Positions 16,740 through 49,700 are shown, counted from the first letter of the stretch. The stretch is 64,000 nt of DNA from a virus (IMGVR_UViG_3300035204_001874:66120-130119); one strand, 5' to 3'. The notes: generated by a model from the letters alone, not told the origin. Translations and numbers: made by a program.

Positions 16740-19700
16740 TTACACCGCTCCTATATTATCTCCCCCATTACCGATTCCAGCTTCATTTACTGTTTTATTT
16801 ACTAAGTCCCTAAGTTTACTGTATTCTCCCGCTACTTGCGCCAAAACTTGGTCGGAAGCTTTACGCGCCTCTGTTTGGCTCACGCTTCCGTCAGATTGAA
16901 CTTTCAAATGTATTTCTCCCTTATTGATGAGGTCTAACGTTCCTGTGATTTCGGTCGTATCGCCGCCTTGTTTGTTAGCTGTTCCTTTTTCCTTTTCTTT
17001 ATCATCTAAGGCTTTATTGATCTTCTTAAGTACGGCAAGCAAGCTTTCGTTATCCTTGCTCTTGTCACCTTCGGTAGCGGCTTGTTTTTCCTTGGTAACA
17101 GCTTGTTCCCCTGCTTCATTAAGTTCTGTGACCGTGTTTGATTCGGGTCCGGCGAAAGGAGCCTTGGTATTCTTGATCGAGTCCGGCCAATTCATAACGT
17201 TGACTGAGGAACTTTGCCCCATCGTTATTCTTGATGCGGGATTAGGCTCGACTCCTGTTTCGGGGGTACTTCCCCAATCTTTATCTTTGGTTACAGGTGG
17301 GAAACGGCCGGGCAGTGCGTCTGTTTCGTCTGTTTCTACGGATGCGGTTTCTGTCGGTGCAGGTGTTGTGGTGGGGGGTGCAAAGGGGGTGGGTGGTACG
17401 TTCGGCCAATTCTTGATCGAGTCCGGCCAATTGGTGATTTCCACTTTCAATATTCCTTCTGTGGGCAAGCCTTTGGCATCAAGTACGGGTGGCCTTCCTC
17501 CTACGGGCAAGCCTGTGTTAGGATCAACTGTACGTGTAGATGGTTTTCTCCCGTCACCCCCGTCACCCATTTTTCTTCCCATTTGTTTGTCTATTCGCTT
17601 GAATCCTTTGCGGGTCTGATCGTCTGGCTTGTAATCTTCATCAGTCCCTACTTTTTTCCAAGTCTTGCCGCCATCAGTAGTTGTTGCTACTACTTTGCCA
17701 TTTATTGTTTTCTCACCTTTGCCAGTTTCTTTGTTAATGGATGAGACTAAACTGCTTCCGTCTTTACCATGTCCTCTCGCTTCCGTTCTTAACTCACCAG
17801 CATCTCCGCCTTTGGTTCCCGCTGCTGCACCCGCTTGACCTGCGGCACCTGCTCCTCCCATCGGGAAGGCTTGATTACTTCCTCCAGCCCCGCCGATTCC
17901 AGCATCATAACCTCCGCCAACATCGTAACCACCCATGCCTCTTCTACGAATTAATCGTCCACTTCCGGCCCTGAGAGATATCCCCTTACCGGGTTTGAAT
18001 TGTACTTTACCCGGCCAGTTGGTAACGAATACTGGCTGTACATCTTTTGCCATACCCATTCCCATTCCTCCGGCCACCTTCGCCATCAATCCAACCATTT
18101 GCGCTGGATTCATTCCTTCTTTTTCTTTTTTATCCATTTCGGCTTTTTGCTCTGGAGTTACGGCTCTCATTCTGCCGTCTGGACCCATTGCAAATTCTGT
18201 ATGCGCTGAACCTAACGCTTTTTGCGATTCTTTAAATTCCTTAGCTTCTTCTTCAGTATAGAATTGATTTTTAGCAACATTCATTCCGACGAATTCTGAT
18301 TTCATTTCTGCGCGTACTTGGCCCATAGCTTGTTGTCCGGTAGCTTCATCTATTTGCCCCCCCGCCATTTGCATTCTTATTTGCTGCTCTCTAGCCTTAA
18401 GCTCTTTGAATTTTTCTGCTCTTTGTTGAATTTTGATTTTGAGACCCTCGGTTGTCTTTAGAGCCTCTGTTCTTTCCTCTTGGCTAAGGACTTTTTCTGG
18501 AGCTACGTCTTGGAAGCCTTCTCTTATGGTGATGCCTTCGCCTCTCTCAGCTTTGCCCTTATCTTCTTCCAGTTGTCGTATATGAGCTTGACGACGTCTT
18601 TCGGTTTCAGTATCACCTTCACCCTTTACCCCTACGTCTTCGAAATCGTCTACATCTTTTCGGTATACCCTTGTTCCGTCTTCTCTGTATACCCCAACGG
18701 GTGCCCTTCCTCTTTTGCCTTCTTTTTCACCTATTGACTCATAATATCCTAATTGGGCTATGGCTTGCTGGTCTCCTTCGTCAGCCAGTTCCCGTAGTTG
18801 TTTCATGGATGAATACGCTTTGTCTTCTCCAACAATTTGAGACCTATAAGTCTCTTTACGTTCTTGAATTAATCGATTGTCTGCTCCAAATTGTTTTATA
18901 GCTTCTTCATCCATGTCGAAGCCGGATTTTTCAGCGTCTTTTTGCAATTTTGTCATTCTATTATTCCAGCTTTGCATTGCTGACTTCTTCTCATCCTCAT
19001 CTTCAATAGCCATGATATCGCCCCATTCAACTTGCATACCAAACGCTTTTGACCGCAAACTTTCCTTCTCATTTTCGGACGCGGACTTGAGTTCATTAAT
19101 CTCTTCGTCTATGCTGGCTATATACTCGCTCCTTACTGCCTCCTCTTCGCCTTCTCTTCCCAATTGACCAGCAAGCTGTTCCGCGCTCATGACTTCTTTT
19201 ACTCCACGATCACCCAAAGAGAGGGCTGCTCCCATTTCTCTTTCTTGTGCCGTGTAGCCTTGTTGGCCTATTTTTCCGGTCCTAGCTTGAGTGTCTTTTA
19301 TTCGTTTTTCAAGGTTTTGCTTCTGGACCTTCTCCTTATCTGTGAGTGTTTCTGTTTCTTCTTTGGTTTTTAGTTGCTGAAGTTCTTCCCTGTCTTTTGT
19401 AAACTGATCTCTTTGTTCTGTAGTTAGGCCAGTGGCACCAAGGAGTCTTCTTTCTTCTATTAGTTTTTTCTTTTTTTCTTTTTTCTCTGCCTCGAAATCC
19501 TCTTTTGATTGGCCTTCTTTTATCTTGCTCTCATCAACAGCTTTGATTGCAGTTTCAATTCTTTGTGCTTCGGTAAATCTTTCTTTTCTTCTTCCTATTA
19601 TTTTTTCTCTTTCTTCTTCTCTATCTGCGCTTGTCATGAACTCGGTTTTAGCGAGCGTCTCGTTACGCAGAACCATTCGTTGTCTTTCTGCTTGCTGTTG

Positions 19701-22700
19701 CTGGGGCGAGGTTCGATTTCCCTGACCGAATGCTCCTCCAGCGGGTGGAGCTCCTCCCATTTGGCGCATTTGATATTGAACTTGCTGCCTTTGGGCTGGA
19801 GACATATTATCCCATGCTTGATTTATGCGTGCCATAGCTTGCCTGTTCATGCCGCCACCCACTCCGCCAGTCATGCCAGCTATCATGCCTCTCGGAGTGC
19901 CAGCTACGCCCATTTCGCTTATGTTAACGACGTGTACTGGCATCGCTTTCCCAATAGGGTTCAAATTTACTTTTCCACCAGGTTCCAGCTTTACTGTTTT
20001 AGCTTGAATTCCACCTTCCTCAGTTTTGGGGCCAACTTTCCCTGTCCGAATGTCGGCCATTTTTTCTTTCGAAGTCTTTTCAGTCTTGGTGTTCTTTGCT
20101 TTTTCTTTTGCTGCATCAATCCGTAGTTCAAACTCTTCTTTTGCGAGTTTTTCAGCTTTGGTTACTTCCGTTATGGCTGTCATGCCTTTTTTACCCGCCA
20201 TGGCGATATTAACCTTTAAGATGTCTCTCAAGAGACTAGCAATGATTCGATCTCCTGTACTCAGACCACCTTTGGATATCATTGCTGAATACATCCCCAT
20301 TTTTTCCTGTGCGCCTCTGGCAGCGAAAGCTTTTTGTTTGGTGTGCTCAGTTGTTACTCCGGCTATCCCACCAACAACGGCCCCTATTAAGGTTCCCCAC
20401 CCTGGCAGAAGCATAGTTCCAATACCAGCACCTACTGCTGCTCCTGTTAAACCTGCTGTGCCCATGCTCCTCTTTGTGTCTGTCGATCCGGTAAATATTG
20501 CGCTCATGGCTCTACCGAATCCACCTTGTACGGGGCCAAGCTCTTGTCTTCTCTGCGAGAGATTTCGCATTCGTTCCATGTGCCCTTCAGATCCCTGGAA
20601 TCCGATAACTCCGAGAACTCCCGCCCCCACAGCGGCTTTCGTATAGCTTTTTGAAGCCTCGAATCCCGCCTTGAGTCCTTGCATACCGCGAGCTCCGTCC
20701 TTTAAGGCTTTTGTGCCGAGAAAGCCAGCCCTACCTACTGTACCGTATGCGGCCCCCGCCCCACCAGTAAGTGCGCTAAATCCTATGTTGATAGCGTCTA
20801 CCACGCCAAAATCTTGGTGTTCCAATCCCTTAAAAAGTTCGTCGCTATCAAGTAAGTCTTTAATATTTTCTTTTTGTTTTTCGTCCTTACCTTTGGTAAA
20901 GCCCATCATTTCCATTTGCTGTTTAACATTGAAACCTCCACCTCCAGCAAGAGGGACAGGTAAGCCTGTCTCGGGGTCAACTTTTGGAGGCGACATTGGC
21001 GGCGTTAACCCACCACTAAATTTTGCTTGTAGAGGCCCACTAGCATCAATTCCTTCAAGTCCTGCCACATTGGCACCATTTATAATCACGTTAGCGTTGC
21101 TAGTCATGATGTTTGCCGCAGCTACATCCAATGAAGCATCACCCACTGATATATCTCCAGTTGTTGCGGCGGCTGTATCACCCGCTGCAACTCCTTCGGG
21201 TGCCCCGTCAGCTTCAGCGGGAGTTACTTTTTGGGGAGTTACTTTTTGGGTACTTGCATCATGTAATTTCTTTCCGCCCCAGATAAGGCCACCGACTGCC
21301 GCGACTATCAAACCAATTTTTGTTTTAGACAATCCCTTAGCTGTAGCTTCAGCAGCCTCTCCACCCAACTTTCCACCCGTCTTTTCCAAAGCCTCCTTAG
21401 CTGTAGCTTCAGCAGCCTCTCCACCCAACTTTCCACCCGTCTTTTCCAAAGCCTTTTCGCCTGTTTCTCTACCTAGAGCTTTATTCACTCCTTCAGCTAC
21501 AGATGCTGACACGCCTTTTGCTAAGGTTTCATTCACCTTAGCCATGTTGCGTTTAAGTATTGCGTTCAGCAGTAATCCGCCGCCTACAAGGCCGCCACCG
21601 AACATGCCAGCCGCTTGCCAATTGACACCACTGCTATCCGGCATCTCCATTTGTTGATCTTCCAGACCTATATTCCTACCTTCAGATAGTTCGTAACCTG
21701 ATTGTAAAGCTATGGTATTTTCATTATGATCTTTTTTTCTTATTAGGGATTGCTGTCTTAAATCCAATTGTCCGGCTGCTTGCCCTCTTTGAAATCTAAG
21801 GTCTTTGCGTTGTCCTCTCAGCGTCTCAGCATCAGCGTGTCTTCCTTCAGCGTTAGCTTGCTCAATTTTAGCTGTGAGTTCAGATATTTCTCGGGTTAGC
21901 TCTGGAACTTTAACCGTTACCTTGGTTGCGTCCGTTCGGCTTTTTGCAACTTCTACCGCTCTCGATTCTCCAAACCTGCCTGTTCTAAGCGCGGACTCAA
22001 TTGATTTGAATTCATCCGGCGTAAGGCTTACGTTCTTTCTGTCCATTTTATCAACCATGTTGGCCATCATCGTATCAAGTGATGCAGCATCACCAGTTTC
22101 AATGGCGGCTAAGGCGGCAGCTTTTTTAGCGGCAGCGTCGGCTGCGCGATCAGCGGGATCAGCAATTGTGTCGTCCACAAACGTTCCTTTTTGTTCAGCC
22201 ATGATAACCAACTCAGCGGCAGCCGTTCTTTTTTGTTCGAGTTGTTGCAGGGCTTCAGATTCTCCTTTTTGATCTCTGATAGCTTGATTTAATACGTCGA
22301 GACGAGACAAAAGTTGGGTTGTTTGATTTCGGATTTCGGTACTGAAGTTATCGTTTAATGGATCGAACTCGTTCTCCATGTCTTGACCGATTACATTTAT
22401 ACCTTGTTGCAACCTTCTATTAATTGCCGATAAGAACTTCATTGATTGCTCAATGTTGTTTGGCATATTCTCAAGTTTCAGCTTGGCTTCCATTTGGTGG
22501 GTTGCAACTGTCTTGGCTCGGCCCCTTAATCCTTGCATTTCGCTAATCATGCCTTGTATAGCGACTTTTCCTTCCACGGTTCTCTCTCTGCCCTTTTTTC
22601 TTTGAAGGCTGGCTATATTTCTTTCAGCGAATCGTTCTATTCTTAGTTGGTTACCTTTGATTGCAAAATCTTGCATTTTCTTTCCTGCTGCGCCCATGCC

Positions 22701-25700
22701 TCCACCCACGGCATCTTGAACAGCCTTAGCTAAATCTCCCGCTGCCCTACCTTTTCTTATTGGGTCACTAGTTACGGTAAATCTTGTGGCCGCTCTTTGG
22801 ATGGTTCTTGTCTGTTCGCGCTCTTTCTTTCTGTCTGAGAAAGCGTCTGCGCCACCAGCAGCTTGTATAGCTCTATTAATTTCTAGTTGCTTTTTCTGTT
22901 CTATTAATTGCTTTAGGTGAATTTGGGTTTGTTTCGCGGTTTCCAAGCTCATCTTGCTAATTTGTTGAAGCATAGCCTCTTCAAGCTTGATTGATTCAGT
23001 GGCACCACCCGTTTCTTGGAACATTTGCAAAGCCATTGCTTCTGGTCCACCCTCTTTCAATACCCCAGCAATTTTATCAAAATTAAGGTCTCCAGATTGG
23101 CGGAGATTGGTAATTTCTCTTATCATCTCAGCATCACCTGAGGCTTGAGCATCTGCCATCGCTTCGTCTAGTGCCGCGTTAGCAAAAGCGTCACTCATAG
23201 CCTTATTCATCTCTCTTGGACCCCAACCTTCGGCTGCTGCTTGTTTTTGGATTCGTCCAGTGGTATCCATTGCAATTTTTTTGGCTTTCATTACAGCTTC
23301 ATTAGCAACAACGCCTCCCCTTGTCCCAGTCCTTGTGGATTCTGCTGCGCCTAACAAGCCTTGCGTTATGAAGTTGGCGAATTGCCCTTGAGCCTCCGCT
23401 CTTGCGCCAGCCATATCTACACCAGCCTTTTCCAAAATTTCATTCATCTTGGCTGAACCCTCGGCGGCCTGTATGGTGCCTTCGCCAGTCGTTAACGCTG
23501 CGGTTTGGACCTCGGCCCTGAAGGCTTCCCTTCCAACGTCTCCCATTAATCTGCCACTCATTACGGTTCGGGCTTCCCCAGGCACGTTGGTTACTTGGCC
23601 ACCAGCACCCATTATTGGTTGACCTTGCCTTGGACCACCCGGTATCGGTCCACCAAGAATGGGTTGGAAAACACCACGCGCTGTTCGGCCAGCCACACCT
23701 GTGCCCATCGCTGCTGCGTGCATACCTCCCGCAATTCGAGGGGTTTCTCTTCCAATTGTTATTCCTTGGCCGCCCGCGATGCCAAATGCGGCAGCTTTAT
23801 CGATGCCTCTTTGCTGCGCGAAAATCTTCCTTTCTACGCGGGCTTTCTGCAATTCACCTAGGCTTCCCACCATGTCTTGTATGGCTGAGTTTGCTGCTTG
23901 GGTAGCAGTTTTGAGCCGCTGCATTACATCAAGATTTTTTTCTCTAGAATGCGTTAATACGTCCATTAGCTCCTTATCTCTTTTCCTCTTGTCGGACGCT
24001 TCCTTAAGTTTCATCATGAAGACCTTCATGTCTTCTCCGCCCTTCTTAAGTTGCTCTGCAAACTCTTTGGTCATTACGCCTTGTCTTTGTAACGCAGATA
24101 CCGCAGCTTCTGCCCCAGAAGCTGTCGATAAGGTGGCCATGTTCAAGCCATCAAACTCACTGGTCATTTTATCTAGCTGTTCAGGCTCCAAGTTAGTGGT
24201 GAAGTCTCTAACTGCGGTTCTAAAGTTCTCCTTCGTTTCTAATTCTTGAGCGTCTGTTTGATATCCGACAACCATACGTTTTGAGAACAATCCACTACCT
24301 CCTTCTGAGATTCCTCCGCCCCCGAAGAGAGACATTCCCCACCTGCCTTTAAGAGCTTTGAGATTAGCTTCAGCCATAGACATGGTTGATTCTGTTACGT
24401 TTTGTTTCCTTGATATTGTGTCTTGAGCTTGAGCAATCAGTTGTTGTCTCTGCTGTGGGTCAGCGGTAGCCGCCAATTCAGACTTAATCTCTCGTCCTTC
24501 TTCGGTGTCAGGTATAGCGTTTAAAGTATCCATTAACTTCTTGTTTAAAGCGTCAATGGTTCTAGTGGTAACAGTCGGGTCTCCGTAAGCGTCAGTAAGT
24601 TGGCCAAGTGTCTGAGAATATTCTGTTAAAGCAGAGGAAAGTTCTTGGAATTTTGCTTTATTTATTTCGGCTATCTTCCGCATATCCACAACCCCCATGA
24701 AACCGTCTATAGCGGCAGCACCAACAGAACCGATGCCGATCATTGCTGCGGCTGCCATGCCAGCGGGACCAGGCATCGCAGCCATTGCTTGCATAGCCAT
24801 AGTTGCGCCAGTGGTGACCCCCTCTAAAGCTTGTCTGGCATTGCTCTGTTCCTCTCCAAAAGCTAACCCAATTCCACCTTGCGCGAATCCTCCAAATTTC
24901 GCTGACGCTTGATACATCCGTCCAGATCGATCCTTCTCTGCCTGTAATTCCTTTTTCTCTTCGATTGCTGATTCAATTCTTGCTTTTTCACCCTCTTTAA
25001 CTTGATCGAAAGACTGCCCTTTTTCCATTCCAGCTTTGTATCTGTCTCGCGTTTCCTCTATTTGTTCTAGTTGTTCTTGGGCCGCTTGCGCTCCCTCTAT
25101 ATTGCCGATCCCTTCTTGTTCTTCGACTTGTTTCTTTTGGTCTGAGACTGCCTTCTCTAAAGATTCAATTGCGTTTTGTAGTTTTCTTTCGCCTTTTTCT
25201 CCATCTATTTCTTTAGTTTTAGCTTCTAGAGAAGCGTCAGTAAGGGCTTTGCTTGCTTTTGAGTTTTCCGCAAGTTCAGAGGTTAACTCTGCCACTTGTG
25301 CTTGTAGGTCTTCGAACGACATTCCTTCTGCTGTCTCTGCATCGCCACCCGTCGCCTCTAGTTTTCCGCTTATCTCTTCTTTTTTGGCTTCGAGAGTTTC
25401 AGTTAGATTGCCCTTTCCTGAATCCTTCATAAAGGTTGCGGCTTCTTCTTGTTTTTTCGCAAATTCCTCTTCTGAAAGTTCACCCCTTTCTCCTGAAATG
25501 ACGACCTCTATTATCTTCTTCTCTTTTTCTAACTCTGCTGCTTTTGAGACTCTGGTTGCCATTTCGCTCTTGGCGGCTTGAAGGCTTTCTCTTGTTTCTT
25601 CGGTCTTTGACTTCGCTTGAATTTGCTTTGCAAGAAATGATTTTTTCTCGTCCTTGTCTTTGGCTCGCTTTTCAGCTTCTGATCTGGATATTTTTGGGCC

Positions 25701-34700: not shown

Positions 34701-37700
34701 CTGATCCATAAACGTTGACGTTTGAGATACCTCAGTGTGTCCCACTGGAGGAACTACGTCATACTTCGGACCTTCTCCTTGAATTCGCCCTGCTGGAACT
34801 CCCGACTGATACTGAACCTCTTCTTCGAAACTTGGGACGAAGCCTGTGTAATCACCTAAATCTTCAGGATCAATATTAGACTCTTCCAGTTCTTCAAATG
34901 TAGGTAATATGCTGCTACCGTCAGGGTTGACGCCTTTGCCGTAGTATCCTGCTTCTGCGTCCAACACCTCGTTTAGGGATTCTTCCGCTGATACGATTTC
35001 TTTTATTTTGTCTAAGGGAGTAAGCCCGACATTACTCATTGTTTCATTGAGAGATTTCTGTTTTTTGACCCCTGTTTGTCTGTCAATTTCTTTTGCTTGC
35101 TTCACGGTAAGGTCAAAGTTCGGGATAAGACCCATTGATCCAAATCGCTTTGCCTTTTCGTCATCTATAAGAGAAATGTGTCCCGAAAAATCATTAAGTA
35201 ATTTGGCTTGCTCTTCGTCATCGTTCCATAGCTTTGCAAATTCTGCGGCGCACTTTTCAAAGGCTTCAAAATAATCTTCATCACTAACTATTTGGTGCAT
35301 TGAATTACTGATTTGACCTACATCAGAAGAGAGCTTCGGCTTATCTTTAAATTCTTCGTTTAGTTTTTGAATTATCCAAGCGGGCTGGATGGAGTTTCGA
35401 GCGTTGCTGATTTCTGTCTTTAGTGTTTGTGGGCCACCAAAATTCGGAATACCCTTATCTGTTGCGTAGCCTTCTTCCCAATTGAAGTTTGGAATATGCC
35501 CATCAGGAAAACCAACAAGCGAACCAGCCGATTCGGCAAGAGACTTAATGAGATGAACTAACCCAGCCATATCTGGGTCGGCTTCCATTGCTCCCATTAT
35601 TAAAGCGTTACCACCCATCCACCAAGCTAAAATACGATTGACTTTGCTCCTGACTTTTGGATCAGTAAAATAAGGCGCGTCATCGTCTCGAACCTTCTTT
35701 GCCGTCTCTTTCATTTCTCCCAACTGTTCGGGAGAAATTTTTTCTTCCTCAAAGCTTGGGACAAATCCCCCCGCTGTAACTTCTCCTCCTAATGATCTTT
35801 CTAACGTAGCTAAATGCGACATCTCTTTCGGGCGAGGTGCGGCGTTCCTAAACATTGCCATCGGAGAAGGCTCATTGCCTAAAGAGAAGCCGCTCGCACC
35901 CTGAGTAAGTTTCATCTTACCGCCATCAGTATCTTCCCATCTTTTTTGGTCAGCTTGAACTTGATCCAAATCAGTGATGTCAACGCTACCAGCGTACGTC
36001 TCCATCTCTGAAGAGATACCTCTTAATTTACCAGTGCTACTTAATACTTCTCGAAGATATTTTTCTTTTTGTTCTTCCCAGCCTTTTTTAAGTTCGTCAT
36101 ACTCTTTTTCTCCCGCCCCCAATCGGTTCGGGTCTGGCATATCTATAGCTCCAATTAACGTATTGTGTGCGCCACCTAATACATCCATGGAAACCGTAGG
36201 CATATTTAAGGTGGGATGTTCTGGAGCACCAAGATGTGGAAATTCTTCCTGTATTCCTAACATTCTTCCATAGAACTCATCTAAATCTTCTGGAATAGTC
36301 GGGTATTTATTAATGCGATCTAAACCGCCTTCGTGCACGGGCCTAACGGCGCGGCTCTTTAATGTCTCTTTCCTGTCTCCAAGGTTTTTGAGTCTGAAAT
36401 CAAAATCATCCGCTAAATCTTCATATATTTCTCCCCCCCTGTCGTCTCTTGTCCAATATTCAGTACTTAAATCAGATAAAGGATTTAGTTGGCCATACTT
36501 TGCTAAGAAATATTTATTTAATATTTCTTTATATTCATTGTTGAAATCGTAGCCTATTAAGTATCCATTTTTTGCTCTTCTTACGTCCTCAACTACTCCT
36601 TTTAGTGGCCCCGTTTCTAAGTTTTCAAAGTATGGCCAAGGTGCTTTATATGCTGAATCGTCAGGTGAAGGAGTCCTAGTTCTAAGAGGGTTAAGCATAT
36701 CTTTCCATCTATCATCCTCGAAATTTGGGACAAAACCTCTCGCAAGACCTGTCTCTTTATACCCTTCTGCTTTCGCAACCTTATAGGCGTATTTTTTAAG
36801 AAATTTTTGTAGATTGTATGTCTTGCCAGTTCTTAAGGATTCTATTTTTGAATCAGGGCTAAATTGATTGAAGGCTATTGGGTTGCCAGTAATCTCATCC
36901 GCTTCTTCGTCATACACTCCGGTAGCTCCGTATGAATGTATTTCACTACCATGAGCAGCCGTTGTCGCTGGACCAGAACCGTCTTCATCTTTCGCAACGA
37001 GCGCGGGGTTTTGAAACCCCGTTAGTTCTTCATAATGCTGCGATATAGCATCATCAATGATGGTGGCTCCCGCATATTGCCCATCAATTATGTAGCCTCT
37101 ATCGTCTTCAAATTCTTTTATGTAACTGTCGGGTCTTCCAAAGGGAGCCCCACCTTCAGCGTACTCCTCAAGCATTTGCCTATCATCATCGTCTTCATCA
37201 CCGGGGGTTCCACCATGCTGTGCAAACATTCTTGAACCACCAATTGTTGATGGTCCGCTTTCTCCACTTTGACTGGTAACTTCTCCCGTATTTAAATATT
37301 CCAAGTATTCCCTGACTGAGCTTCTAAATGCGGTTCTCCCGCTCCCCCTATGAAATGGGGTGGTTCCCGCTTTCTCCAAAAATTTCGCCTTATTTGACCA
37401 ATCTTTTCGCTCAAATATTTCTCCCTTTGGGAATTCGTGGGCAAAATTAGGAATAAACCCTTTATTTAGATTGTTAAGTCCCTTTGTGCCTAGCTTTTCC
37501 ATTCCCTTTTGATTTACTACGCCTTCTCCACCTTTAAGTACGGCAAGCTGCTCTTTATTGAAGTTGGGAACGAGGCCACCAGAATGATATTTTGGAATAT
37601 CCGTGAACGGAAACTCAGTTTGAGTCTGAGGTTTTACGCTATCTAAAATTTTCTGTTGTTCTTCCTCGGGTAACTCAAGAAGGTCTCCAAGACCCATCCC

Positions 37701-40700
37701 GTGCACCTTTCTAAAGTCAGAAAGGGTTTTGCCGAAATACCTCTTTTCATCTTCACTTAAAGGCCCAAAGTCTTTGTTGTCTGGGTCATCTCCGAAGTTT
37801 GGAATAGAACCTTCTGCCACATTAATATAGTCCTGCTCATTTTCTAATACTTCAGTAACCTCAAAGCTGCCGCCGCCTTTGCCAAAGTCCACAGTAAATG
37901 GTTGATTTTCGTCTTTATGAATAGACCTATAAGTTCCTTTGGCGGCGGCACTAACGGACCTGTCGCTTGTGACATTTTTATACCCCTCTTCGAATGCGCG
38001 ACTAAAAATTCGCGAATAGTGTTGTTTGCCGAAACCAAGCAGTCTAGCCCATGTTGGAGATTCATCGGTGCTTTCAATTCTTATGGATTTGTCACTCGTC
38101 GCCAAACCGTAAGTCGTAGTAAAAAGCTCTTCGTCAAAATTTCCTAACGGGGGCAAGGAAGATTTAAACTTCACTGGGAGATGAAAAGACCTACCTTTTG
38201 GGAGATCGTCTTCAAATATTAGTTGATGAGGGCGAACTTCTTCAGTTTTAAAATCGGGAAATTGGAAAGGAGAGTTATCGTTATAATACGTCTTAATCCA
38301 TTCAAAAGCACTCTCATAAGAGTCAAATGGTTTGTGAGCTTCTTGTTTATGCATTCCTTCAAGAACGTCCAAATCAAAAACTTCGCCTTCAGTAAAGTGG
38401 CCAACCAAAGCAGAAAGTTTATCATCGGTAAAATCTGCGATATGTTCTCTTAGTTTCGCTCGTTGATTGATTACGATATTAGGCAAGCTCGCTACGGTTA
38501 ATTGTTGCAGTCTTTTTCTTATTTGCTCACTAGTCCCTTTCTCCTCTTCGTTTTCGAGTATTTCCCCCATTGCTGAGTTAGCGTTGAAAAAATGCATCTC
38601 GCCATCTCTTAAGTTTGCTAAACTTTGCCGAGCAAATTCTAAATTTTCAATAGTATCTATGGGCTCTGAAGATACAATATTGGGGCTTGCAACATAGCCG
38701 ATCCAACCGTAGTCTATGTTTTCTATTTCTTTATCGCGATCTTCTTCCTTCAAGTGGGGGTTTTGTTTTTGAAAAGCAGAATGAGCCAAAGACTTAATGG
38801 CTTCTTGTTCTCCAAACTGCCGAGCGGTATCGAACGTAGCTTTAAGACCTTCTGCTCCACGGAGCGATGATATTCTCCCTGTAGTCTCGTTTTCGCCATG
38901 TTCAAAAATAAGATCGGTTTGCTTTAGGGCTTCATCGCTACCATAGCCGTGGAATTGTTGCGTACGGTTGATTAACGCTGATTGTTCCGTAAAGTTTGGC
39001 TTCTTGGCCTGTAGAATTTTGTCACTTTTATGGGGCATAATCCACGTTCCACCAGTTTCATAATCAAAAACCGCTCGTATTGGGCCTTTGTAGTCGCCTG
39101 ATATTTCACCTAAGACACCCTCGCTAATTGGACCTGACCAACTTGACAGTTCTACTTGTGCATTGAGGGATTTCCATATTGACTCTTTATTTGCTTCGTC
39201 TGATTCTTCAGAGTATCCAGCCTCTCTAAGTTTAGCTTGTATGCCCACGTCTGGACTGTAAAATATTTCATCGAAGAAAAGACTCATCCCTTCCATGGCA
39301 CCCACTTCATCATTATCCCACCCCTTCCACGTTTCAGAATGAATTTCTCCAATTTGAGAAAAGTCACGATCAACGTACTTAAAACCTAAACGCTTCATAG
39401 TTTCTGGCTTACCAGGATTTGTAGGTACTGTAAAAATACTGTTCCCATGGGCGTCCGGGGGGGGAAGGGGGTTCGGGAGAACCCCACGAAATTTACGATA
39501 ACGAGGGTACTCTGCTTCTTCGAAATCCTCGTGAAGCATTTCGCCCCAGTCTTTCTTTACTCTGTCCCGCTTTGCAAGACCGAGGGAAAATTTTTCTTTA
39601 CCTTGCTCTTTGCGCTCTTCGTCCGTTAGGCTTAACCATTCTTTGTACCTCTTCTCCTCTTCGCTACCCATATCTGTTCCGGTAGCCTCTTTTATTTTAA
39701 ACTTTGCTTCGGAAACCCTATCTTCGTTCATAGCTTCCGTGTAAGAGCCGTCTTCGTTTTGTTTTCCTTCCATGCTGCGTTTGCCCATTGCCCTAAAGAA
39801 GTCTCCAGGGACATAGCCCTCTTTATCAGTTCTCGACTCTACGAAATTCGGGGTAAATCCTTTTGCGAAACCCTCTTCTTTAACCTCTAATGTACCCTCA
39901 TCTAAACCTTCCCAAAAACGATAAAGAAATGTTTCAGTGTCAAAGCCTTCTCTTTCTGTTGCTAACTTCTCCGCTTCTTTTCTTACTTTTTCTTGCACGC
40001 TTGCTTTTGTCGTTTCTTTCGTTCTCATTCCGTAAGTTTTTACGTCTGCTCCCGTAATCCTTATCGCTCTCGCTAATTCCTTACCTTGCACAAAAGCCCA
40101 TTCCATAAGTGGGTTAGCTTCTATTACTGCTCCCTCTTCTGATACGTGACCAGAGATATCCTGATAGCGTCCTCCGCCCATTGTATCGAATGGAATTTTT
40201 TCGCCACCTTCTGGTACCTGTAGAAAGATGTCGCTTATTGCCTGTTCTACACGCAAACCTCTTTCTGGACCCATGGGTTTTGATTCTATTGGGGTCGCTG
40301 CTCTTCGGGCTGCTGCTGCGGCTTTGTGGCTATCTATTGTTTCTTCGCCTTGACCACTAAGAATTACATTTAAAATAAAATCATCGACATGTTCTCGCGC
40401 CTTTTGATCCGCTTCTATAATCCTCTTGTCTATTTCTTGAGCGAAGGTGGAATCTTCGGGTATCACGCCGCTCCTCCTTGCGGCATCAATTAATTCTTGC
40501 CTGATACCAAAATGAACATACTCTCTATTTCTTGCTACCGTACGCTCAAGCCCTGTCGTGGGATCAACTGTTCCCCCTTGTTCCTCGACGTCTTCCTTAG
40601 TGGAAAGGCTTACCAGGGCAATATCGCTTAAAGCTTGAGCGGCTAGATTTGCTTTTTTTTCAGGCTCTACGTAAGATTCAATCCTCGTAAATGTCTTGTC

Positions 40701-43700
40701 GTAAACCTTTCCAAATGGCCCTTTTTTCAAAAGGTCAACAATTGGAAGATGCATATTAAAGCCGCTGGTTGACCCATCATCTGGAAGGTCTTCGTCTTTA
40801 ATTGTGCGATTAATAATTTGTTGTCGTAAGCTGTCATCTTGCACTAGGCTTTTTTCCATCATAAGCATAGCGTTATGGACTCGTTCAAATTTTAATCTAT
40901 AATTAGGGTGGTTTTTAAATGTAGGATCAATGCTAGTTTCTCCAGCAAGAAGTAATTTAGCAGCGTCCCTTTCTTCTTGGCTAGAATCTGGTCTGTATAA
41001 AGTTTCTTCTAACGTAACCAACGCTTCCTTATCATTGGCGATAGCTGAAGTCTCTCTTTGTTTTGATTGTATTTCTTCGGCAACTTTAGGTTGTCCGTCT
41101 TGGTCAGTGCTTGACCAATCCCAAACTGAGGGGTGTCTATCCCAATCAGCGAAAGCGTCTAATATATTAAGTCGAGACTTGTTGAGCTCTTGCCAGTACC
41201 AATCTGCATTCTCTTTTACGTCCTCAATTTGTGATTTATCTAAATCGCTTTTTTCTAATCTGAAAAGCTCAGAATAAGTTTTTGCTGGTCCTCGTCCGCT
41301 AACTTCATTGAACACGCCGTTTATGATTCCCCAAGTTGGAGCTCCCGTAATCGAACCACCACGTTTTTGATATTTTGACCAGCTTATGTCTGGATGATCT
41401 TTGCTATTAAGGTCGCCTTCGAACGCTTTTATCCCAAAGGGAATCTCTCTGAAATCTTTAGTTGCTAACCCAGAGGTCTCTCTTGATTCTGCTTGCGTCG
41501 GAGCTAACCATTGAGCTTTTATTCCAAAGTCAGCTTTCGACATAACCCCACCGAAAGGTTGGTTTGTCACGAAGTTTGGAACGAAACCTCTGTTTAGTTC
41601 TTCGAGCCCTTTCGAGCCTAACGCTTTCATACCCGCTTGGTTTACCACACCTTCTCCCCCGAGGAGCATGGCTGGTTGTTCTTCATTAAAGTTGGGAACT
41701 ACGCCTCCAGAGTGGAATTTAGGAATGAAGCCTTCATTTGTTATTTTGTATTCTTCTGGCTCTTCTTTTTTCTTGTCAAGACCCAAAAGTTGAAGAGCTT
41801 TTTTTATTCCTTTTGCACCTACCGACTTAGTGCTGCCCCACAGCTTTCCAACAGCTTCTCTTTTTGCGGTCTCTGCATCGTTCCACGCTCTATGGCTCCG
41901 TTGTGTCCCACTTCCTTCCCATCGATTCTCAGAATCGACAAAATTAGGAACAAAACCAAAACTCTTGGAGGTGTAGGCGGCTTGAAAATCTTTAGCTTTC
42001 ACTCTTACGGATTCGTCCGTTAGCTTCATTGTTGATTCAGATAAGCCCATTAAGTAAATCAAAAAATCATCATCCAAAGCTCCCATGATACCCCCAGTTA
42101 CAGAAGCTAGTTCTTCCACTTTGTCGGGAGACGTAAGGGTTGAGGCGAGCAGCATTTCAACTTCTCTTGCGTGCCCTTCTGATTCAGTTTTGCTCCTTTG
42201 GTGAGCGATTTCGTGAGTGATGGTCGAAATAATACTCTGATAAAGCCTTTTTCTAATTAGTGGAAGACGTTCATCCTCCTCAAGACCTTCCAAGTCAGGT
42301 TCACCGCGTGTTTGATTCCTAAGACTTGTTTTCGTTGACTGCATTATTGATATAGGGTCAAGTAATACTTCGGTTCCTAGCTTTAAGTCTAAATCTTCTT
42401 TGGAAGCTGCCGCGTACTCCTTACTTGCCATTAGGCGGTCCTTATCTGAACCTACATTTACCCCCTGCCAGGCGGCACCTAAAGTAAGACCTCGGAATTT
42501 GACGCCCCTATAAGCTTGATCAAGCTCTTCAGTGGCAGATTTTGCGACAAAGTCAAAAGTCTTTTGCATGGCTCCTGCAAGCTTTATCATTCCTGGGTGT
42601 TCGGAAGCCCCCTTTAGTAAGGCTTCTCCTTCTTCTGTTTCCGACAGAAGGTTTACGTCTTTGACAACTAGACTTTTTTGCCCTTCAACGATTTCTCCCA
42701 TCCTTGTTTGGGGTATGCCTAATGAGGCTTCTGGCGTGCCTCTTGTTTTTTCTTCTTGTATCGTTTTTAAATCCGACGCTATGTCTTTCATTCGTTCTGC
42801 GGCAGCTTCGCCAAATGCTCCTTTTAGTCTTCGTCTATCTTTATCCCAAGGGTAATCTTCCGTTCCCACCGCAGCACGACTTGAAACGCTAAACATTAAG
42901 TCTTTCGGTACGTAATCCATTGCCATTTGCAAGGAAGAATAACGTTGCCCTTCTGAAAGAATTGGGATATCTGCTTTACCCCAACCTGTTTTGATTGGGG
43001 GAACAGAGTCATCAAAGAGAATATGTAGCTTGCCCGTAGCCGTTTTGGGAGGTTTCGGCAACTCTATCGTTTCGTGAATTTTAGCGTTGGCTGGTTCGGC
43101 AATTATAGGTTCGTTCCAATGACTTTCTAGATGTTTTTTTGATAAAACTTCTGGATTTTGTGTTCGAAATGTTAAAGCTGCCCCAATGAAATCAGAATCT
43201 TCAGTCATTAACAGTGGTATTTCTGCTATTCTATGGCTTCTAGCGCGAGCCATGTTCTTTATTGTTTGCTCTGCTTCTTCGACACCGGAAACTGACATCG
43301 CTTCTTTAGTTGGGTCCACTATCATAGTTGTCCCAACTAATCTTTTTTCGTATTCCTTATCTTCTTCTTCGAACAAGTCCTGCATGGCAGTTGTGGATTC
43401 GAGCTCTTCTCCTTCTTTAAATCGATACCCTGGCCGATACCCAATATCTAAAGGGTTTTTATAGGCGTGTGATGGCGTTCCCTCTACGGTTTTGAATTCG
43501 TGTTTGTCGATAAGCTCTCTAATGGGGCGCGTAAGATAATCGTGTCTTGTTATATCTTCGTTCTCTTCATCAATGAAATCATCTAAATCAACAGCAATGT
43601 GTGTTGCGCTTTTATCCTCGTCGCCCCAGCTTGGACCGCGTTTAAATCTTTTTCCTCCAACTTCACTAGTGCCAACAAACACCGAAGCTTCGTCATCAGA

Positions 43701-46700
43701 ATCCGAAGAGAACTCACCTTCAAGAAATTTTTTTAGTTTAGCATAAAGACCCGGCTTCTCTTTTTTTTCTTCTTCTGTCGCTGACCTTATGGCTTCTTCG
43801 CTTTGCTCGGTTTCGACTATTTTTCTTGTTTTTCGCGCTCCTTCTATCGTTAACTCACGAGTATTATTATATTCCAAACCTGATTCTTCATCGAATAATT
43901 TGTGCCCAAAAAAAGCATTAGCATTCTTTGCTGCAAGACTGTACCCTTTTTTCCTTCTTTCTTTGAGGCTCTCTTCTAACTTTTCGATCTCTTCTAATAA
44001 TTCGGGTCTTTCTTGCGGCAACCAAGAGCCACCTTCGGTTAGCTCTTCAAAATCTTTTACCGTCCCAATTGTTTTCCATTGCATCCTCAAATCCTTACTC
44101 ATTGGAGAAGTCGCTAGTTCTCCTTGAGGTTGGTCGAAAAGGTCTTCTGGTGGTGGAGTAAACGGCTTTGTAACAAACTCTTTCCAACCCTTCGCGTTAC
44201 CAATCATCTTGGTTCTTATCCTATTACCTTTAACATTAGCAACGGTATCCAAAAAGAATTCTTTTCCAGCTAAAAAGATAGAAGATTTCCCCATCCCCAA
44301 ACCAGCTAAAGCACCCTCATCCCTTTCTATGTCTTCCATCCCTGTTTGGGCCATAGGCAAGAAAGTTTCAAATACTGCTCTAGGAGTCATGCCCTCGCCA
44401 AGGTCAGATATAGTAAATGCGCCATCATGGTACAATGGCTGATTATAATGAACTCCACTTCGGTCTTCTGTTTGTCCGTGGGCTACTGCGTTTTGGAGCA
44501 TTTCTCTTAACGCGATCCCTTTGTAGGCGGACATATCCGATAAAGCTATTGCAAGAAGTCGGTCTATGTTAACCGCCCTCGTTAACCCTTGAGCTATTCC
44601 CACGGGTACACTTTGAGGGTCAGTTTTTGCCCACTCTTTAATATCGCTTGCTGTTTCTGACTCTTTTCCCTTAAGTTCTTCATTAAGTTTAGTTATGTCT
44701 TCAATTGACGGTAACCCACTTGAGTCTGAGAAATTTGGAACGTACCCCTTATTTAATTGGTTAAGTCCTTTCGGGCCTAACGCTTTCATGCCTTTTAGAT
44801 TTACGACTCCCTCACCTCCAAGAAGCATAGCTGGCTGTTCTTTGCCGAAACTTGGAACAATTCCTCCTGTGTGAAATTTTGGAGCAGAACTTTCAAAAAA
44901 ATCGAAGGATGATCTTTCGTCCCTTTTTGTCTCTTCCTGTTTTTCTTCTGGGGCGAGATCAGTTTTTTCTTTTGATTCAAGCTGCTGGTCTGCTTTTTCT
45001 ATGTGCCGTTGGGCATATGTGGCAATTTTTTTATCTTGTGCGGAAGGAGCTCGCGGGGCCAAAGCGGCCTCGTGAAGTATGCTCATTTTTCGTTTGTTTT
45101 CTTGTGGGTCTTCTTCTGGGTCAGAATCAATTAGTACTCTTCCGCTTGTAGCGTGAAGTATTAAGTGAGGTTCTTCTTTTGCGAATTCTCCAGCCGCATC
45201 ATAATGAGCGCGTTCGTGTTTTCTTATGTCTTCTTCTGTGGCTTCCGCTCGTTTTTCGTATGGGCTTCGTGGACCTTTTCGCATTGAACGACGGAGCATT
45301 TTATCTCCCGTTGGGCCATAAAAAATATCTCGGAAATTAGGGACAAGACCCTCCGAGAGGCTTACTAGACCCTCCTTGTCTGGATCATGACTCCCTTCTC
45401 TTTTTGCTTTGGCTCTTTCTGCTATACCCTGCAATACTTTAGCGGCTTTTGGTGACGCTACCGGAATATTTCCTGTTGGTATCGTGGACATGTAGGTTTC
45501 ATAGTCTAATACGTGCCTACCCACCCTACTTAATTCTGGATAATTTCTAGCGATAATTTCGGTTTCGCTTTCTAGCTCTTCAAGTAAAGGTGTTAGTTTG
45601 CCTTGCTCTACCTGCACTTCGCTTTCTAATCTTTGCTGTTCTTCGGGCGGCCTTTTCGCTTTTTTCGCTTCCCTTAGATTGTCTTTGGCGACTTTTATAC
45701 CGCTTCTTTGCGAGCCTACATTTTCAACAAGTTCAGAGTATGACTTAAGTGATTCTCGCAGGTTTGGATTTGATACAATTAGATTTTTTAAATTTGATAC
45801 GTCTTCTGCTGACGAAATTAAAATGTTATCAGTTAGTTTCCCAAGCTCTTTAGAGAGTGGGTTAGGATGATGCGCGAAAGTAGCTTTGCTTGGATCAAGA
45901 TTTGGGAAAGCGGTACCCTCCCTATTTGAAACTAACCCTAAGTTAGTTGCTCCAGCCATTTGTATTTGCTGCATATAAAACTGCATTGCTGCAAGTAGGT
46001 ATTCTTTTTCCGCTCCCACAGAGGTATTATATAAATCCGCAAAATCTTGACCTCCATGTCTATATACGTTTTCTTCTAAAATTCCTTGGTCTGTTTTACC
46101 CAATCTCCTTACAAAGCTTATGTTATCTTCGATTTTTTTATTGTCGTAATCCTTAATGGCGGTTTCCAAAGGGTTAATTCCAAGTTCGCTGACGGCAGTA
46201 AGAAACTCGTGCCTTGTTTCGTATTTTATAGGGTCTTGCGCTTGAGACTGATTTAATTCTCCTGTTATTTTGTCAACGTTTTGGAATTCGCGAGGCATAT
46301 ACTGCTTCATAACATAGTCTGTTATCTCTACTGTCTCTATGGGGTGATCGTTTCCATAAAGCTCTATATACCTTTGCGCTTCTTCTTTTGTTCCTTGGTG
46401 TGGTTGGCCTTCGCCTTTTATTGGTAAGCTGCGTCCGTGCCAAGGTTGATATGCGGGGTCATTGGCAGCGTTATATCTTACTTCATAGATGGGAATAGCG
46501 TTTCCTTTTTCATCTAATTCGCGGTAAGCTATTTGGCCTCTGCCTATTCCTACAAATTGTTTATCAAATTTAAGTTTTGGTTCGCCAGATTCTTCCATTC
46601 CAAAACTGGATTTAACCGTTATCCAATCGCCTTTTGCGGAATTGAAACCAGATATCCCCTTAACGAATTCAACCACCATGTCTTCATTGATTCTTTCGGA

Positions 46701-49700
46701 TATCCCCGTTTGTAGCGTTTCGTCAGACTTAACGTCTAAAATTTCATATTCTCTTTTACTAAAGCTTTCGCCTTCCTCGTTTTGATGTGATGATATTTTT
46801 TCCAAGTAGGAAAGAGAGCCTACACTCTTACCAAGGTTTTCCGGCCCTAAACCAGCTTTAGACGCTTTAGCCCTAGTTCCTAAAACGCTAACGTCTACCC
46901 GCTTGGGGTCTTCTAACGTACCCGTTCCCGATATATCAACTTTTGTTCTTCCTTGAGCTTTAGCCGCAGCAGACTGTAGTGAACCAGCGGCACCTACAAA
47001 AAACTCTTCAGCAAAAGCTTTTTCATCTTTTAATCTATCTTTGAATTCTCTCTTAATTTCTTCTGCAAAGTTTGGTATGCCACCTTGATTTGCCATTCCT
47101 TTTATATTGAAATTAAAATCGGGATACCCCTGTTCAATGTTGAAGTTGGGAACAAACCCTTCAGCCCCGAGTAGAGCTTTGTCCATCAACCCTCTTTTGA
47201 ATGCTTTTTTTAATTTTTTAGCTTTGACATTAAAATCTATAATTCCAAGATTTGGATAAACCTGATTTTCTTCGTCAAATTCTGGTTCATAGGCTATAGC
47301 TTCGTCCGCTTCATCTTCTTTCCCCTTCTTTATGTATTTTAACACCATTGAACCTTCGCTCGTCTCTATTGCTCTTACCGGCTCTCCCAGTTCGGTATCG
47401 TAATAAATTGAATTATGTTTTAGGGGTCTTTCGGTCCCTGGGTGAGCCATTGACTCAACTAGTGCTTCTCTAGCTTCAGCCTCTTCTTCTGTTTCGTCTT
47501 CACTCTCCTTTAGGTCTTTGGAAGAGAAAGTTTTATCATCAGTCGTTTTGAGATGTATACTTGCAAAACTGGGAACGAATCCTTCCGCAAAACCTTCCGT
47601 TTCTCTGTGGCCAAGAAATTCAGAAACTTGATCCGTTTTCTTTTTCATGTCCAAGGTGAAAATGTCAGCCATATTTGGCTCATATTCCCCTTCGTATCCA
47701 CGAACTACAAATGTTCCATCTTCTTTTCGTATTGCTGTGACAACTTCACCCTTACTTACGTCGTAATAAAGTGCTCCTGGACGAAGCTCCGTTGGCTGTT
47801 GTCCAGCCTCGCGTGCCAAAGCTTCTGTTTTTTCTTTGTGAAAATGTTTAGCGGGGAAAGGTTTGTCTGACTCATCTTTCGGTTTAATACGAGCCCACCT
47901 TTTTGTCTTCCTTCTTTCTTTTTCGTCTTCGAAGTTGGGGATAAATCCACCTGCGGAGTTGTTAATTTTACTAATGAATGTTCCTATGTTTTGTCCTGGT
48001 CCCGAAGTTATTTTATCAGTGTGGACTACTCGCCCCGAAGAGTAACCTGCCAATGCCGCTCCCCTTTGCTCTACAGACGCTATTCCAGAGGATACGCTAA
48101 AATTGGGTACGTGACCTCCAGCGGCGACTTTACTAAAGGAAAATCCTTGAGCTTGAGCTTTTCCCGTATCAAGCGCGGCCATTTGAGGAGGATTTAATAT
48201 GCCAGTTTTCCCTCCTTTATGAATAAAAGTTTCCGCAGTGTTTACAATGGCAAAGTTGGGAACGTGCCCCTTAGAAAAGGTATTGGGAGCTTCAGAAAAA
48301 TTAGGGGCGAAGCCCATGCCAGAACTAGGAATGAAACCTGAGGCGAAAGGCATAACTCCAGCCATTGTGGCGTCATCTTCATTTTTTTTTACAGTAACTC
48401 CACCCGCAGCTAATTTGACCGCTATACGTCCAGCTATTTTTTCTTGCTCACGATAGAGTGCGTTTTCGTCTCTAATTCTGGTTAAAATCCTGTCGTGGGC
48501 TGTTTGGATAGAAACAGAGCCATTCAATATGTCCCTTAATAACTCTGGATTTTCTGCTAATTGACCAGTGATAGCCTCTTGTATGTCTTTGAAATCTGAC
48601 GCTGATTGATTTTGGCTAGAAAGCTGAGACAAGGCACCTGAAGCAAATTGTACTAAGTTTCTGACTAGCCCTACGCCTAAAGCGATCATCCCTTGCAAGG
48701 CGGGTCCAGCAAGTACAGCCCCAAGTCCCGAAGTAATTGCAGACCCGAAACGTTCCCCAAGCAGGGTGCCTTCTTTTTCACCTTTTTCACTATCTGGAGT
48801 TGTTACGTCAGCTATGCCACCTAAAGTCCCACTTACTACGTCAAGTCCGCCTTTAAGAACGGGAGCGATAACTATATTGCCTATTCCTGCTGCCGCCCGA
48901 CTAGCTTCATTTAACGTTCCGATTAATTTGCCTTGCAGAGTATTATTCAGTTCTTCCATTCTTCTTTTAGCGTTCCCAGAAGAATTCCCCGCCGTTTCAA
49001 GAGCCCTGTCAAACAAGCTTAACCCACTACCCAAATCACTCAAGGTCGCCTTTAAAATGTTGATTTGGTAAACGCTACCAATTTGCTCAGTGATGTAGGA
49101 TTTTTGAGCAGCAGTTAAATTGTCAAATACCTTTGCTAAATTTTTCATTACCTCCATCAAAGGTAGAGCCTTGCCTTGAGCATCTTTTGTCTTTACGCCT
49201 AGTTGTTCGAGAGCTTCAAGTGTTTTAGGTCTTTGAAGTCTCGTGAAAATAGTCTTAAATGCGTTACCAATTTTAGCTCCACCTCTAGCTGTAATTTGTT
49301 GAGCAGCAGTAACAACAGCGATTGTTTCGTTGAGCGAAACGTTAGCTGATTCGGCTGAACTAGCCACGCGCCTAATAGCTTCGGCTAAGTCTTTGGAGCT
49401 TACGGCAAACGCCGCATCAACAGCAGCCATTCTATCTACAACATCTGTAGTAGTTAACGCTTCACTTCTGAAAGAGTTGATTGCTGCCGTTAAAGCTACT
49501 ACTGAAGCGGTCAAGTCAAGCCCCGACAGCTTCGTTAAGACCATTGCATCACTAGTTCTTCGAAGCGTTTCTCCCGCGCTTAGACCTTGTCTTGAGAACT
49601 CCGCCGCTGCTTCTGCTGCTACGCCAAAAGCGGTATTTGCCGCAGCCGAAGCTTCGAACAGTTTATTAGAAAATTTAGCTAGACCTTGAGAGTTTAAGCC

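Follow-up and report, generated by a model that had tools for sequence, protein, structure and literature searches.

When a phage infects, its tape measure protein is the first to exit the tail, before the DNA, and the tape measure proteins of mycobacteriophages and of the T5 type contain embedded cell-wall hydrolase motifs that are presumed to be active at infection. In GHKL-transducer modules, ATP drives closure or dimerisation, and MutL, which is built on such a module, has a metal-dependent hydrolase domain at its end. In the main text of PMC5512222, zincin-like peptidases were reported as the commonest domain of the proteins injected together with phage or plasmid DNA, and were proposed either to self-process these polyvalent proteins or to attack proteins of the host. 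The terms GHKL, HSP90 and tape measure are absent from that main text, and its off-site architecture tables might list a fusion of the kind considered here. PMC7824862 describes T4 rIIA-type phage proteins as an N-terminal GHKL domain followed by a variable C-terminus. A literature search by titles and abstract openings found no published description of a GHKL-zincin fusion, and the pairing of "tape measure protein" with "GHKL" yielded an unrelated co-mention only. Such a combination was found in a stretch of viral DNA of 64,000 nucleotides (IMGVR_UViG_3300035204_001874:66120-130119; the window hereafter means this whole stretch), where the variable central part of a giant tape measure protein has a cassette inserted as a module fenced by short recurring sequences, the joints. 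The cassette is a self-contained three-part unit of GHKL ATP-binding, transducer-like and zincin-like domains, and it is best read, with about even confidence, as a delivered, cytoplasm-acting, ATP-gated protease.

It had been proposed in a first-pass annotation of this DNA that a GHKL ATPase and an HExxH module form one cassette inside the tape measure protein. All five motifs named in that proposal were located by translation where it had placed them, within a single open reading frame (ORF) of 11,086 residues (Table 1). The HExxH pattern was seen twice in the whole ORF, against 0.22 occurrences expected by composition; a lone HExxH is weak evidence, and it is conservation that indicates that the motifs are not due to chance. 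In an alignment of 20 sequences (A2), 17 columns are invariant. Residues present in all 20 sequences include E76, Q79, N80, D109, G111, G113, G145, K148, G466, P608, Y626, P627, R632, H839, E840 and H843 (module numbering, to which 1757 is added to give the ORF position), and by role they cover, in motif I, the catalytic Glu and the Asn that binds Mg; in motif II, DxGxG; in motif III, the G..K; and in motif IV, the Gly, together with a Y-P...R loop and H-E-H. In ORF numbering, E1833 and N1837 of motif I are invariant, as are D1866, G1868, G1870, G1902, K1905 and G2223 of motifs II, III and IV.

The identification of Bergerat motifs in the first half of the cassette was borne out, and the distant VGTT could be recognized as motif IV, set apart from motifs I-III by an insert of approximately 230 residues. 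An AlphaFold2 model of the whole module, built from 20 sequences, has a mean predicted local distance difference test (pLDDT) score of 58.8, and its blocks at module 105-225 and 550-900 lie between 56 and 90, mostly at 70 or above, with low loops near 130-143 and 660-685. A GHKL fold is predicted by Foldseek, by VIA (a comparison independent of Foldseek) and by profile matches to PDB sequences, and the model over module ~105-225 has a pLDDT of 66-89, apart from the dip at the 130-143 loop. The family profile matched HtpG at 2e-13, and all of the 60 matches listed belong to the Hsp90 family. Foldseek with the whole-module model gave 13 matches at E<=1e-3 (E values of 1.4e-4 to 1e-3, prob up to 1.00), which are also all of the Hsp90 family. 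By VIA, residues 40-663 of the model align with two-domain ATPase modules over 250-287 residues at Z 9-12.9, including Topo II (Z 12.9, root-mean-square deviation (rmsd) 5.0, 268 residues aligned), the N-terminal domain of MutL (Z 12.3, 271 aligned), T6 topoisomerase II (Z 12.2), Topo VI-B (Z 12.0), the N and M domains of GRP94, MLH1 (Z 11.2), SMCHD1 (Z 10.9), MORC3 (Z 9.4) and MORC2 (Z 9.1). As it is two-domain modules that align over this span, the block also holds a transducer-type second domain at module ~550-663, in which the invariant R632 is a candidate phosphate sensor. Structural matches to the GHKL domain alone run from model residue 68 to 476-509, so the strand with motif IV belongs to the fold.

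The charged insert itself scores mostly 25-47 in pLDDT, rising to about 71 in a single short helical segment, and its alignment columns are filled in the row of the window only. Module 333-503 recurs at 98% identity in P0002, an independent fragment from a metagenome. Among the relatives, HATPase_c was detected by Pfam in 19 of 20 and HATPase_c_3 in 17 of 20, several of them above the cut-off, such as P0013 (57.7 bits) and P0011 (40.9 bits). No Pfam match to the HSP90 middle or C-terminal regions was obtained in the window or the 20 relatives at E<=1, and the cassette is not filed as Hsp90 proper on these profile results. Matches to the MutL_C, Toprim, CW and S5 families were likewise absent from the window and the 20 relatives in Pfam, and phmmer with the module alone against PDB sequences returned only chance rows (best, stathmin, E value 0.23).

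The second half of the cassette ends in a probable zincin fold, as judged from the whole-module model. H2596, E2597 and H2600 are invariant in all 20 sequences of A2 and in 22 of 22 of a second set, and 19 of 20 sequences have E or H six residues beyond the second His, giving the pattern HExxHx5[E/H] with a candidate third ligand. Wss1 has the same HExxHx5 ligand spacing. Searched by VIA, module 685-875 of the whole-module model matched the YbeY homologue AQ_1354 (1oz9; Z 7.8, rmsd 3.1, 117 of 141 residues aligned), Saccharomyces cerevisiae Wss1 (5xbn; Z 7.5, 114 of 128), Schizosaccharomyces pombe Wss1 (5ln5; Z 6.9, 102 of 113), YbeY of Escherichia coli (Z 6.9) and Staphylococcus aureus (Z 6.6), and BepA (Z 6.4); VIA values below 8 are middling and may reflect a common arrangement. 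WLM was weakly matched by Pfam in 2 of the 20 relatives (best E value 0.0066) and a YgjP-like peptidase in 1 of 20 (E value 0.24). These Pfam matches and the HExxHx5[E/H] spacing are two independent hints that favor a Wss1-like zincin. No curated peptidase family in Pfam matched the window copy at E<=1, and no member of the family reached any peptidase cut-off. A comparison of the C-terminal 380 residues with the protein atlas returned unnamed clusters only, with a DUF3684 row at 0.81 serving as a lead only. Of the earlier claim that the HExxH lies in a zincin, the motif and its conservation stand, and the fold is supported by the YbeY and Wss1 matches (Z 6.9-7.8) of the whole-module model and not by a model of the isolated domain.

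An exhaustive phmmer search of the module against 1.84 billion cluster representatives (E<=1e-3) returned 19 proteins only. Two of these, P0001 and P0002, are fragments of the window's own protein from other assemblies (98-99% identical), so that the sequence is not an assembly accident. P0018 is a repeat protein that matches module residues 15-44 only, and P0015 covers the ATPase part only; these four proteins were left out of A2 and of the tree described below. The remaining 15 carry both halves, with the HExxH located ~430-490 residues beyond the ATPase motifs, and the same spacing of the two halves in 15 of the 15 relatives that cover the whole module agrees with the earlier view of a single cassette. 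By back-translating the zincin motif into a DNA pattern, 11 IMG/VR contigs were found, all 11 of which match the cassette profile; ten of these viral loci contain a nearly whole cassette, and L004, which is cut by the locus end, contains the C-terminal part only. The same pattern gave nine matches in prokaryotes (one genome per species, 185,579 genomes), none of which is a cassette. According to these pattern counts, the cassette appears restricted to phages. The source names seen for family members are "hypothetical protein" or blank. No match was obtained by tblastn of the module against 50,697 phage records, by scans of viral contigs with single queries (the module, P0003, the window N-terminus, P0023 and P0013) or by a scan of genome contigs with P0023. 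A profile search with A1 added few further free-standing relatives (six rows).

Several of the relatives are themselves tape measure proteins. P0003 (4397 residues), P0019 (3698 residues) and the L003-type proteins (3562-3625 residues) combine an N-terminal PhageMin_Tail domain with a cassette, and the window cassette is homologous as a unit to those of P0003 and the L003-type proteins. When the giant ORF was compared with these tape measure proteins by BLASTP, two regions alone aligned, namely, the N-terminal domain (residues 12-637, 37-40% identity) and the cassette (residues 1802-1978 and 2221-2703, 26-44% identity). A FastTree analysis of 22 cassettes (540 profile columns, unrooted, local supports), from which L008 was left out as it was from A2, its match to the window being identical to that of P0005, and in which L006 is represented by the full ORF of its genome G002 (G2 in the tree), grouped the window with P0003 and the L003-type proteins (support 1.00) and P0019 with free-standing proteins of ~510 residues (support 0.999). 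These groupings indicate that tape measure proteins hold cassettes of at least two lineages, one of which is nearest to solo genes.

Other members of the family occur in different company. P0017 (2442 residues) contains LPD38, a polyvalent-protein domain (E value 6e-18), P0014 has a KTSC domain, and P0005 and L008 show a weak GNAT match ~140 residues past the HExxH. In two near-complete viral genomes (53 and 47 kb), the cassette lies in proteins of 2322 and 2353 residues with no detectable tape measure domain. In one of these genomes (G001), the only Pfam matches among the neighbors of the cassette protein are a DNA polymerase A on the other strand and a weak DUF5907, and ten genes searched against PHROGs gave only an RIIA match, on the cassette protein. 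Free-standing cassette genes (491-596 residues), which the first-pass annotation had suggested looking for, recur on contigs of up to 52 kb. At L110:10001-13878, a solo cassette gene of 512 residues is followed by an ORF of 105 residues and by a gene of 593 residues with DUF3560 (E value 2.2e-37) and a weak methyltransferase match; upstream, on the other strand, are N6/N4 DNA methylase, DUF5131 and DUF1376 genes, and no tail genes adjoin. Among viral predicted structures (BFVD), the best match of the cassette is an unnamed large protein (E value 3.3e-7, 1026 columns); next in rank come RIIA proteins and a phage "HSP90 family" protein, whose alignments are confined to the ATP-binding domain.

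The N-terminus of the 11,086-residue ORF is identified by its profile matches as a true tape measure domain. PhageMin_Tail was matched with an E value of 2.7e-29 and 102.9 bits (cut-off 33.2), and 17 of the 18 PHROG families that match the ORF are annotated as tape measure, all of them within residues 15-831 and mostly within residues 15-490. By tblastn, residues 1-560 found 198 cultured-phage records at ~25% identity, and among the 15 matches listed, 13 are annotated as tape measure and two as hypothetical protein. The remainder of the giant ORF has scarcely any match in Pfam or PHROG. A tape measure domain, a predicted GHKL ATPase, a zincin-like domain and a further HExxH segment share one chain, as several unrelated enzyme domains do in polyvalent proteins, and no named polyvalent-protein (LPD) domain was detected by Pfam in the window ORF at E<=0.01.

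The second HExxH is HERAH at residue 1595, in the module just upstream of the cassette, where window 44955-45242 (residues 1587-1682) gives a weak SprA-related Pfam match (E value 1.3e-4, 21.9 bits, cut-off 27.3); this segment is a further candidate protease in the giant tape measure ORF. A GNAT-like segment (residues ~3953-4047, window 37860-38140) had no Pfam match at E<=0.01 in a scan of residues 3001-6000, and in the C-terminal part (window 16743-23000) a weak Gly-zipper match (PF13441, residues 9848-9883, E value 0.0052) lies below the cut-off. The giant ORF sits in a run of large ORFs on the same strand. None of ten neighboring genes in the window matched a PHROG at E<=0.001, and six neighbors scanned with Pfam gave a single family match, Peptidase_M43, in the second gene downstream of the tape measure gene (window 11512-14292, minus strand, 927 residues; E value 4.1e-12, 46.7 bits, cut-off 23).

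Table 1. Features of the giant tape measure ORF and its cassette. Window positions are counted from the first nucleotide of the window; module residue numbers plus 1757 give ORF residue numbers.
Feature	Residues	Window position	Strand	Basis or remark
Giant tape measure ORF holding the cassette	11,086 residues	16740..50000	minus	single ORF, no internal stop
PhageMin_Tail domain	ORF 125-306	49083..49628	minus	Pfam
~55-residue repeat unit, copy before the cassette	ORF 1705-1757	44730-44888	minus	directly precedes the cassette
Upstream joint GYVPNF	ORF 1752-1757	44730..44747	minus	last six residues of the ~55-residue unit
Cassette	ORF 1758-2681 (924 residues)	41958..44729	minus	family-profile hidden Markov model envelope, ORF 1760-2680
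Predicted GHKL domain, first part (motifs I-III)	module ~50-232	44034..44582	minus	profile and fold searches
LREMLQNA (N box, motif I)	ORF 1831-1838	44487-44510	minus	translation
ISDLGEGM (motif II)	ORF 1864-1871	44388-44411	minus	translation
GLGMGKS (motif III)	ORF 1900-1906	44283-44303	minus	translation
Charged insert within the GHKL domain	module ~233-463 (~230 residues)	43341..44033	minus	low pLDDT; absent from relatives
GHKL last strand and helix, with motif IV (predicted)	module 464-500	43230..43340	minus	model: strand 466-473, helix 480-498
VGTT (motif IV)	ORF 2222-2225	43326-43337	minus	translation
Transducer-like domain	module ~550-663	42741..43082	minus	fold search, A2; invariant Y626-P627...R632 loop precedes a long helix
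Probable zincin-like domain	module ~685-875	42105..42677	minus	whole-module model, VIA
TITHEIAH	ORF 2593-2600	42201-42224	minus	translation
HEIAH-x5-E-x-E-G-H, putative metal-binding motif	ORF 2596-2610 (EGH, 2608-2610)	42171..42215	minus	conservation
Downstream joint GFVPNF	ORF 2682-2687	41940..41957	minus	motif search
~55-residue repeat unit, copy after the cassette	ORF 2758-2810	41571-41729	minus	~70 residues past the cassette
~55-residue repeat unit, third copy	ORF 4134-4186	37443-37601	minus	after the next large module

The ATPase and HExxH sites both look intact. Since a GHKL ATPase depends on ATP, which is cytoplasmic, and the DNA follows the tape measure protein out of the tail, the cassette most likely enters the host and works in the cytoplasm; injection is suggested by its place in a tape measure protein and by its polyvalent-type relatives. 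In the proposed mechanism, the cassette would enter the host along with the tape measure protein, and once it is in the cytoplasm, ATP binding would make the GHKL-transducer module close or dimerise, as happens in Hsp90, MutL and MORC. By this closure, the attached zinc protease would be brought into place or activated to act on host proteins or phage co-cargo, and the role would be one in host take-over or anti-defence. The unit can stand alone, as the free-standing genes show, one of which lies beside DNA methylase genes; in the tree, free-standing forms are sister to a tape-measure-borne copy.

Several points weigh against such a delivered protease. A folded cassette of ~100 kDa would not fit the lumen of the tail tube, so that travel in an unfolded state or another place of storage would be needed. 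The solo copy among DNA-modification genes indicates that the enzyme can be made within the cell, and delivery is therefore not required for its function. The Asp that follows NA in motif I is replaced in the window, P0003 and L003-type copies, the window copy reading NAVAHG where relatives have NAxDA, and the window copy also lacks the SGK of its relatives. Its Pfam scores of 19.7 and 16.6 bits stay below the curated cut-offs (26.4 for HATPase_c and 25 for HATPase_c_3, the latter being the 19.7-bit match, with an E value of 9.3e-4). The zincin fold rests on Z values below 8, and a model of module 665-924 alone leaves its residues 1-79 unfolded and has no zincin match (best Z 5.4; best Foldseek E value 0.21). 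In addition, the neighbors of the ~2300-residue cassette proteins could not be annotated.

A more specific account, which appears unlikely, is that the cassette enters with the tape measure protein at the head of the incoming genome as an ATP-operated clamp, whose GHKL-transducer module closes on DNA or on a DNA-bound host protein in the manner of MutL and MORC, and that the Wss1-like zincin then degrades this protein. By analogy, it would be a phage counterpart of the DNA-dependent Wss1/SPRTN proteases and of the plasmid anti-restriction protein ArdC, stripping restriction or defence proteins off phage DNA. A similarly low probability is given to a role as a chaperone-type helper, in which the Hsp90-like ATPase would refold the tape measure protein or its cargo once they have come through the tail, or would aid tail assembly, with the zinc domain trimming. 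The nearest solved relatives by sequence are indeed HtpG, TRAP1, GRP94 and Hsp90, and cargo that passes a narrow tube presumably must refold. However, the Hsp90 middle and C-terminal families were not detected by Pfam, the ATPase and the zinc domain always come together, a cassette is lacking from the majority of related tape measure proteins, and the solo copy lies among DNA methylase genes.

It had also been suggested that the cassette is the enzyme that processes the tape measure polyprotein; in this reading, the zincin would cut at the G-x-V-P-N-F joints with help from the ATPase. The giant ORF has 37 copies of the motif of the joints, G-x-[IVL]-P-[NSKR]-F, between residues 578 and 7879, against 0.07 expected by composition and a mean of 0.055 (maximum 2) in 200 shuffles; the motif search found none beyond residue 7879. 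The upstream joint closes a repeat unit of ~55 residues, whose consensus reads P-K-F/Y-H-x-G-G-x-V-P-N/S-F ... E-Q-P/L-A-M/V-L ... G-G-E-G-V-V-N ... G-M-K/E-A/K-L-G-x-K-G-L ... G-F/Y-V/I-P-N-F. A joint precedes the N box by 81 residues in the window and by 36 in the L003-type proteins and P0003, and another follows the HExxH by 77-86 residues in all three, so the fences of the cassette are conserved across three tape measure lineages. Such fencing, together with the auto-processing by zincin-like peptidases that the main text of PMC5512222 proposes for polyvalent proteins, would be in line with cleavage at the joints.

The distribution of joints and cassettes makes this reading rather improbable. 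A profile of four N-terminal domains was searched against IMG/VR, and 80 of the 159 loci found were kept (L021-L100), with 67 complete ORFs (1705-3802 residues) and 13 that run off the locus. Joints are present in most of the complete tape measure proteins (at least one in 62 of 67, at least two in 59 of 67), whereas the cassette is present in only eight of the 67, all of the L003 type. Thus, 54 of the 62 joint-bearing complete proteins do without a cassette, and in the other direction no joint is present in 17 of the 20 proteins of A2 that have a cassette; as the two occur apart, the zincin is disfavored as an enzyme acting on the joints. Other candidate proteases are also present, namely, the second HExxH segment and the M43 peptidase encoded next but one. 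Self-release of the cassette at sites other than the joints is compatible with these counts. The tape measure proteins of the cultured Bacillus phages Staley and vB_BcoS-136 have neither joint nor cassette. Within the uncultured IMG/VR clade of tape measure proteins, N-terminal domains are 34-49% identical to that of the window, and most members have a joint near residues 540-650 and several more in the next ~1500 residues; the 11,086 residues and 37 joints of the window are far above those of any clade member.

Another candidate function, which is judged quite improbable, is that of a nucleic-acid enzyme made up of a MutL-like GHKL-transducer clamp and a YbeY-like metal-dependent nuclease. 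The YbeY homologue AQ_1354 is the best structural match of the C-terminal domain (Z 7.8), the N-terminal half has the N-terminal domain of MutL as well as Topo II among its highest-scoring matches, and the solo copy has DNA methylase genes as neighbors. On the other hand, the Glu of HExxH is invariant, as in peptidases, Wss1 is tied with YbeY to within one Z unit, and the Pfam hints for this domain are WLM and YgjP-like peptidase only. To our knowledge, YbeY has no Glu at the corresponding place. The view that the motifs arose by chance or are mere relics, with the block a spacer in a very long ruler, is close to refuted and very improbable: the Pfam score of the window's own copy is below the cut-off and ~40% of the module is predicted to be disordered, but the catalytic residues are all invariant across relatives of 20-30% identity, the family profile matches HtpG as described above, and other tape measure proteins retain both halves (26-44% identity) but not the sequence around them.

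If the preferred reading of an ATP-gated protease delivered to the cytoplasm is correct, long-tailed phages use the tape measure protein as a carrier of ready-made cytoplasmic enzymes, beyond its roles as a ruler and in piercing the wall, and the cassette would represent an ATP-gated protease of a new kind. The family is without a name, and its free-standing form of ~510 residues is compact enough to be expressed and assayed. It may provide a handle on two questions, namely, the function of the variable middles of giant tape measure proteins and the early disarming of the host in the first seconds. An Hsp90-like ATPase hard-wired to a zincin may be of interest for studies of GHKL machines as well. 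The features newly described here are the transducer domain, the HExxHx5[E/H] link to Wss1, the conserved fences, the counts of joints against cassettes, the two-lineage tree, the methylase neighborhood of the solo copy and the insert in the window copy.

Compared with known systems, the cassette is nearest, by profile and Foldseek, to the solved members of the Hsp90 family (HtpG, TRAP1, GRP94 and Hsp82), with which it shares the Y...(K/R)E..QNA helix, D.G.GM and a two-domain N+M-like arrangement (GRP94 N+M, Z 11.9). It differs from them in having no recognized dimerising C-domain, the place of which is taken by the putative zinc-binding HExxH domain, and in the large charged insert that the window copy carries inside its ATP-binding domain. 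The GHL clamps (MutL, MORC and type II topoisomerases) have the GHKL plus transducer architecture in common with the cassette, and their sequence similarity to it is lower than that of Hsp90. In minimal zincins of the Wss1/WLM type, HExxH ends a helix that follows a three-stranded sheet, with a further ligand (E/H) six residues on; the whole-module model of the cassette shows the same order of elements as Wss1/WLM and MPTase zincins, with extra short helices, whereas members of the cassette family remain below every curated peptidase cut-off.

Among phage proteins, many of the BFVD matches of the cassette at prob >= 0.9 are RIIA, and the relative L014 has a PHROG RIIA match (2.6e-5). Only ~175-190 GHKL columns align, however, rIIA is found outside tape measure proteins, and no HExxH domain is reported for it in the passage of PMC7824862 on these proteins. 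On its sequence features, the cassette fits the idea of polyvalent proteins. Tape measure proteins with cell-wall enzymes likewise carry an enzyme domain inside the ruler protein; their enzymes act on the cell wall without ATP, whereas the predicted ATPase of the cassette points to the cytoplasm.

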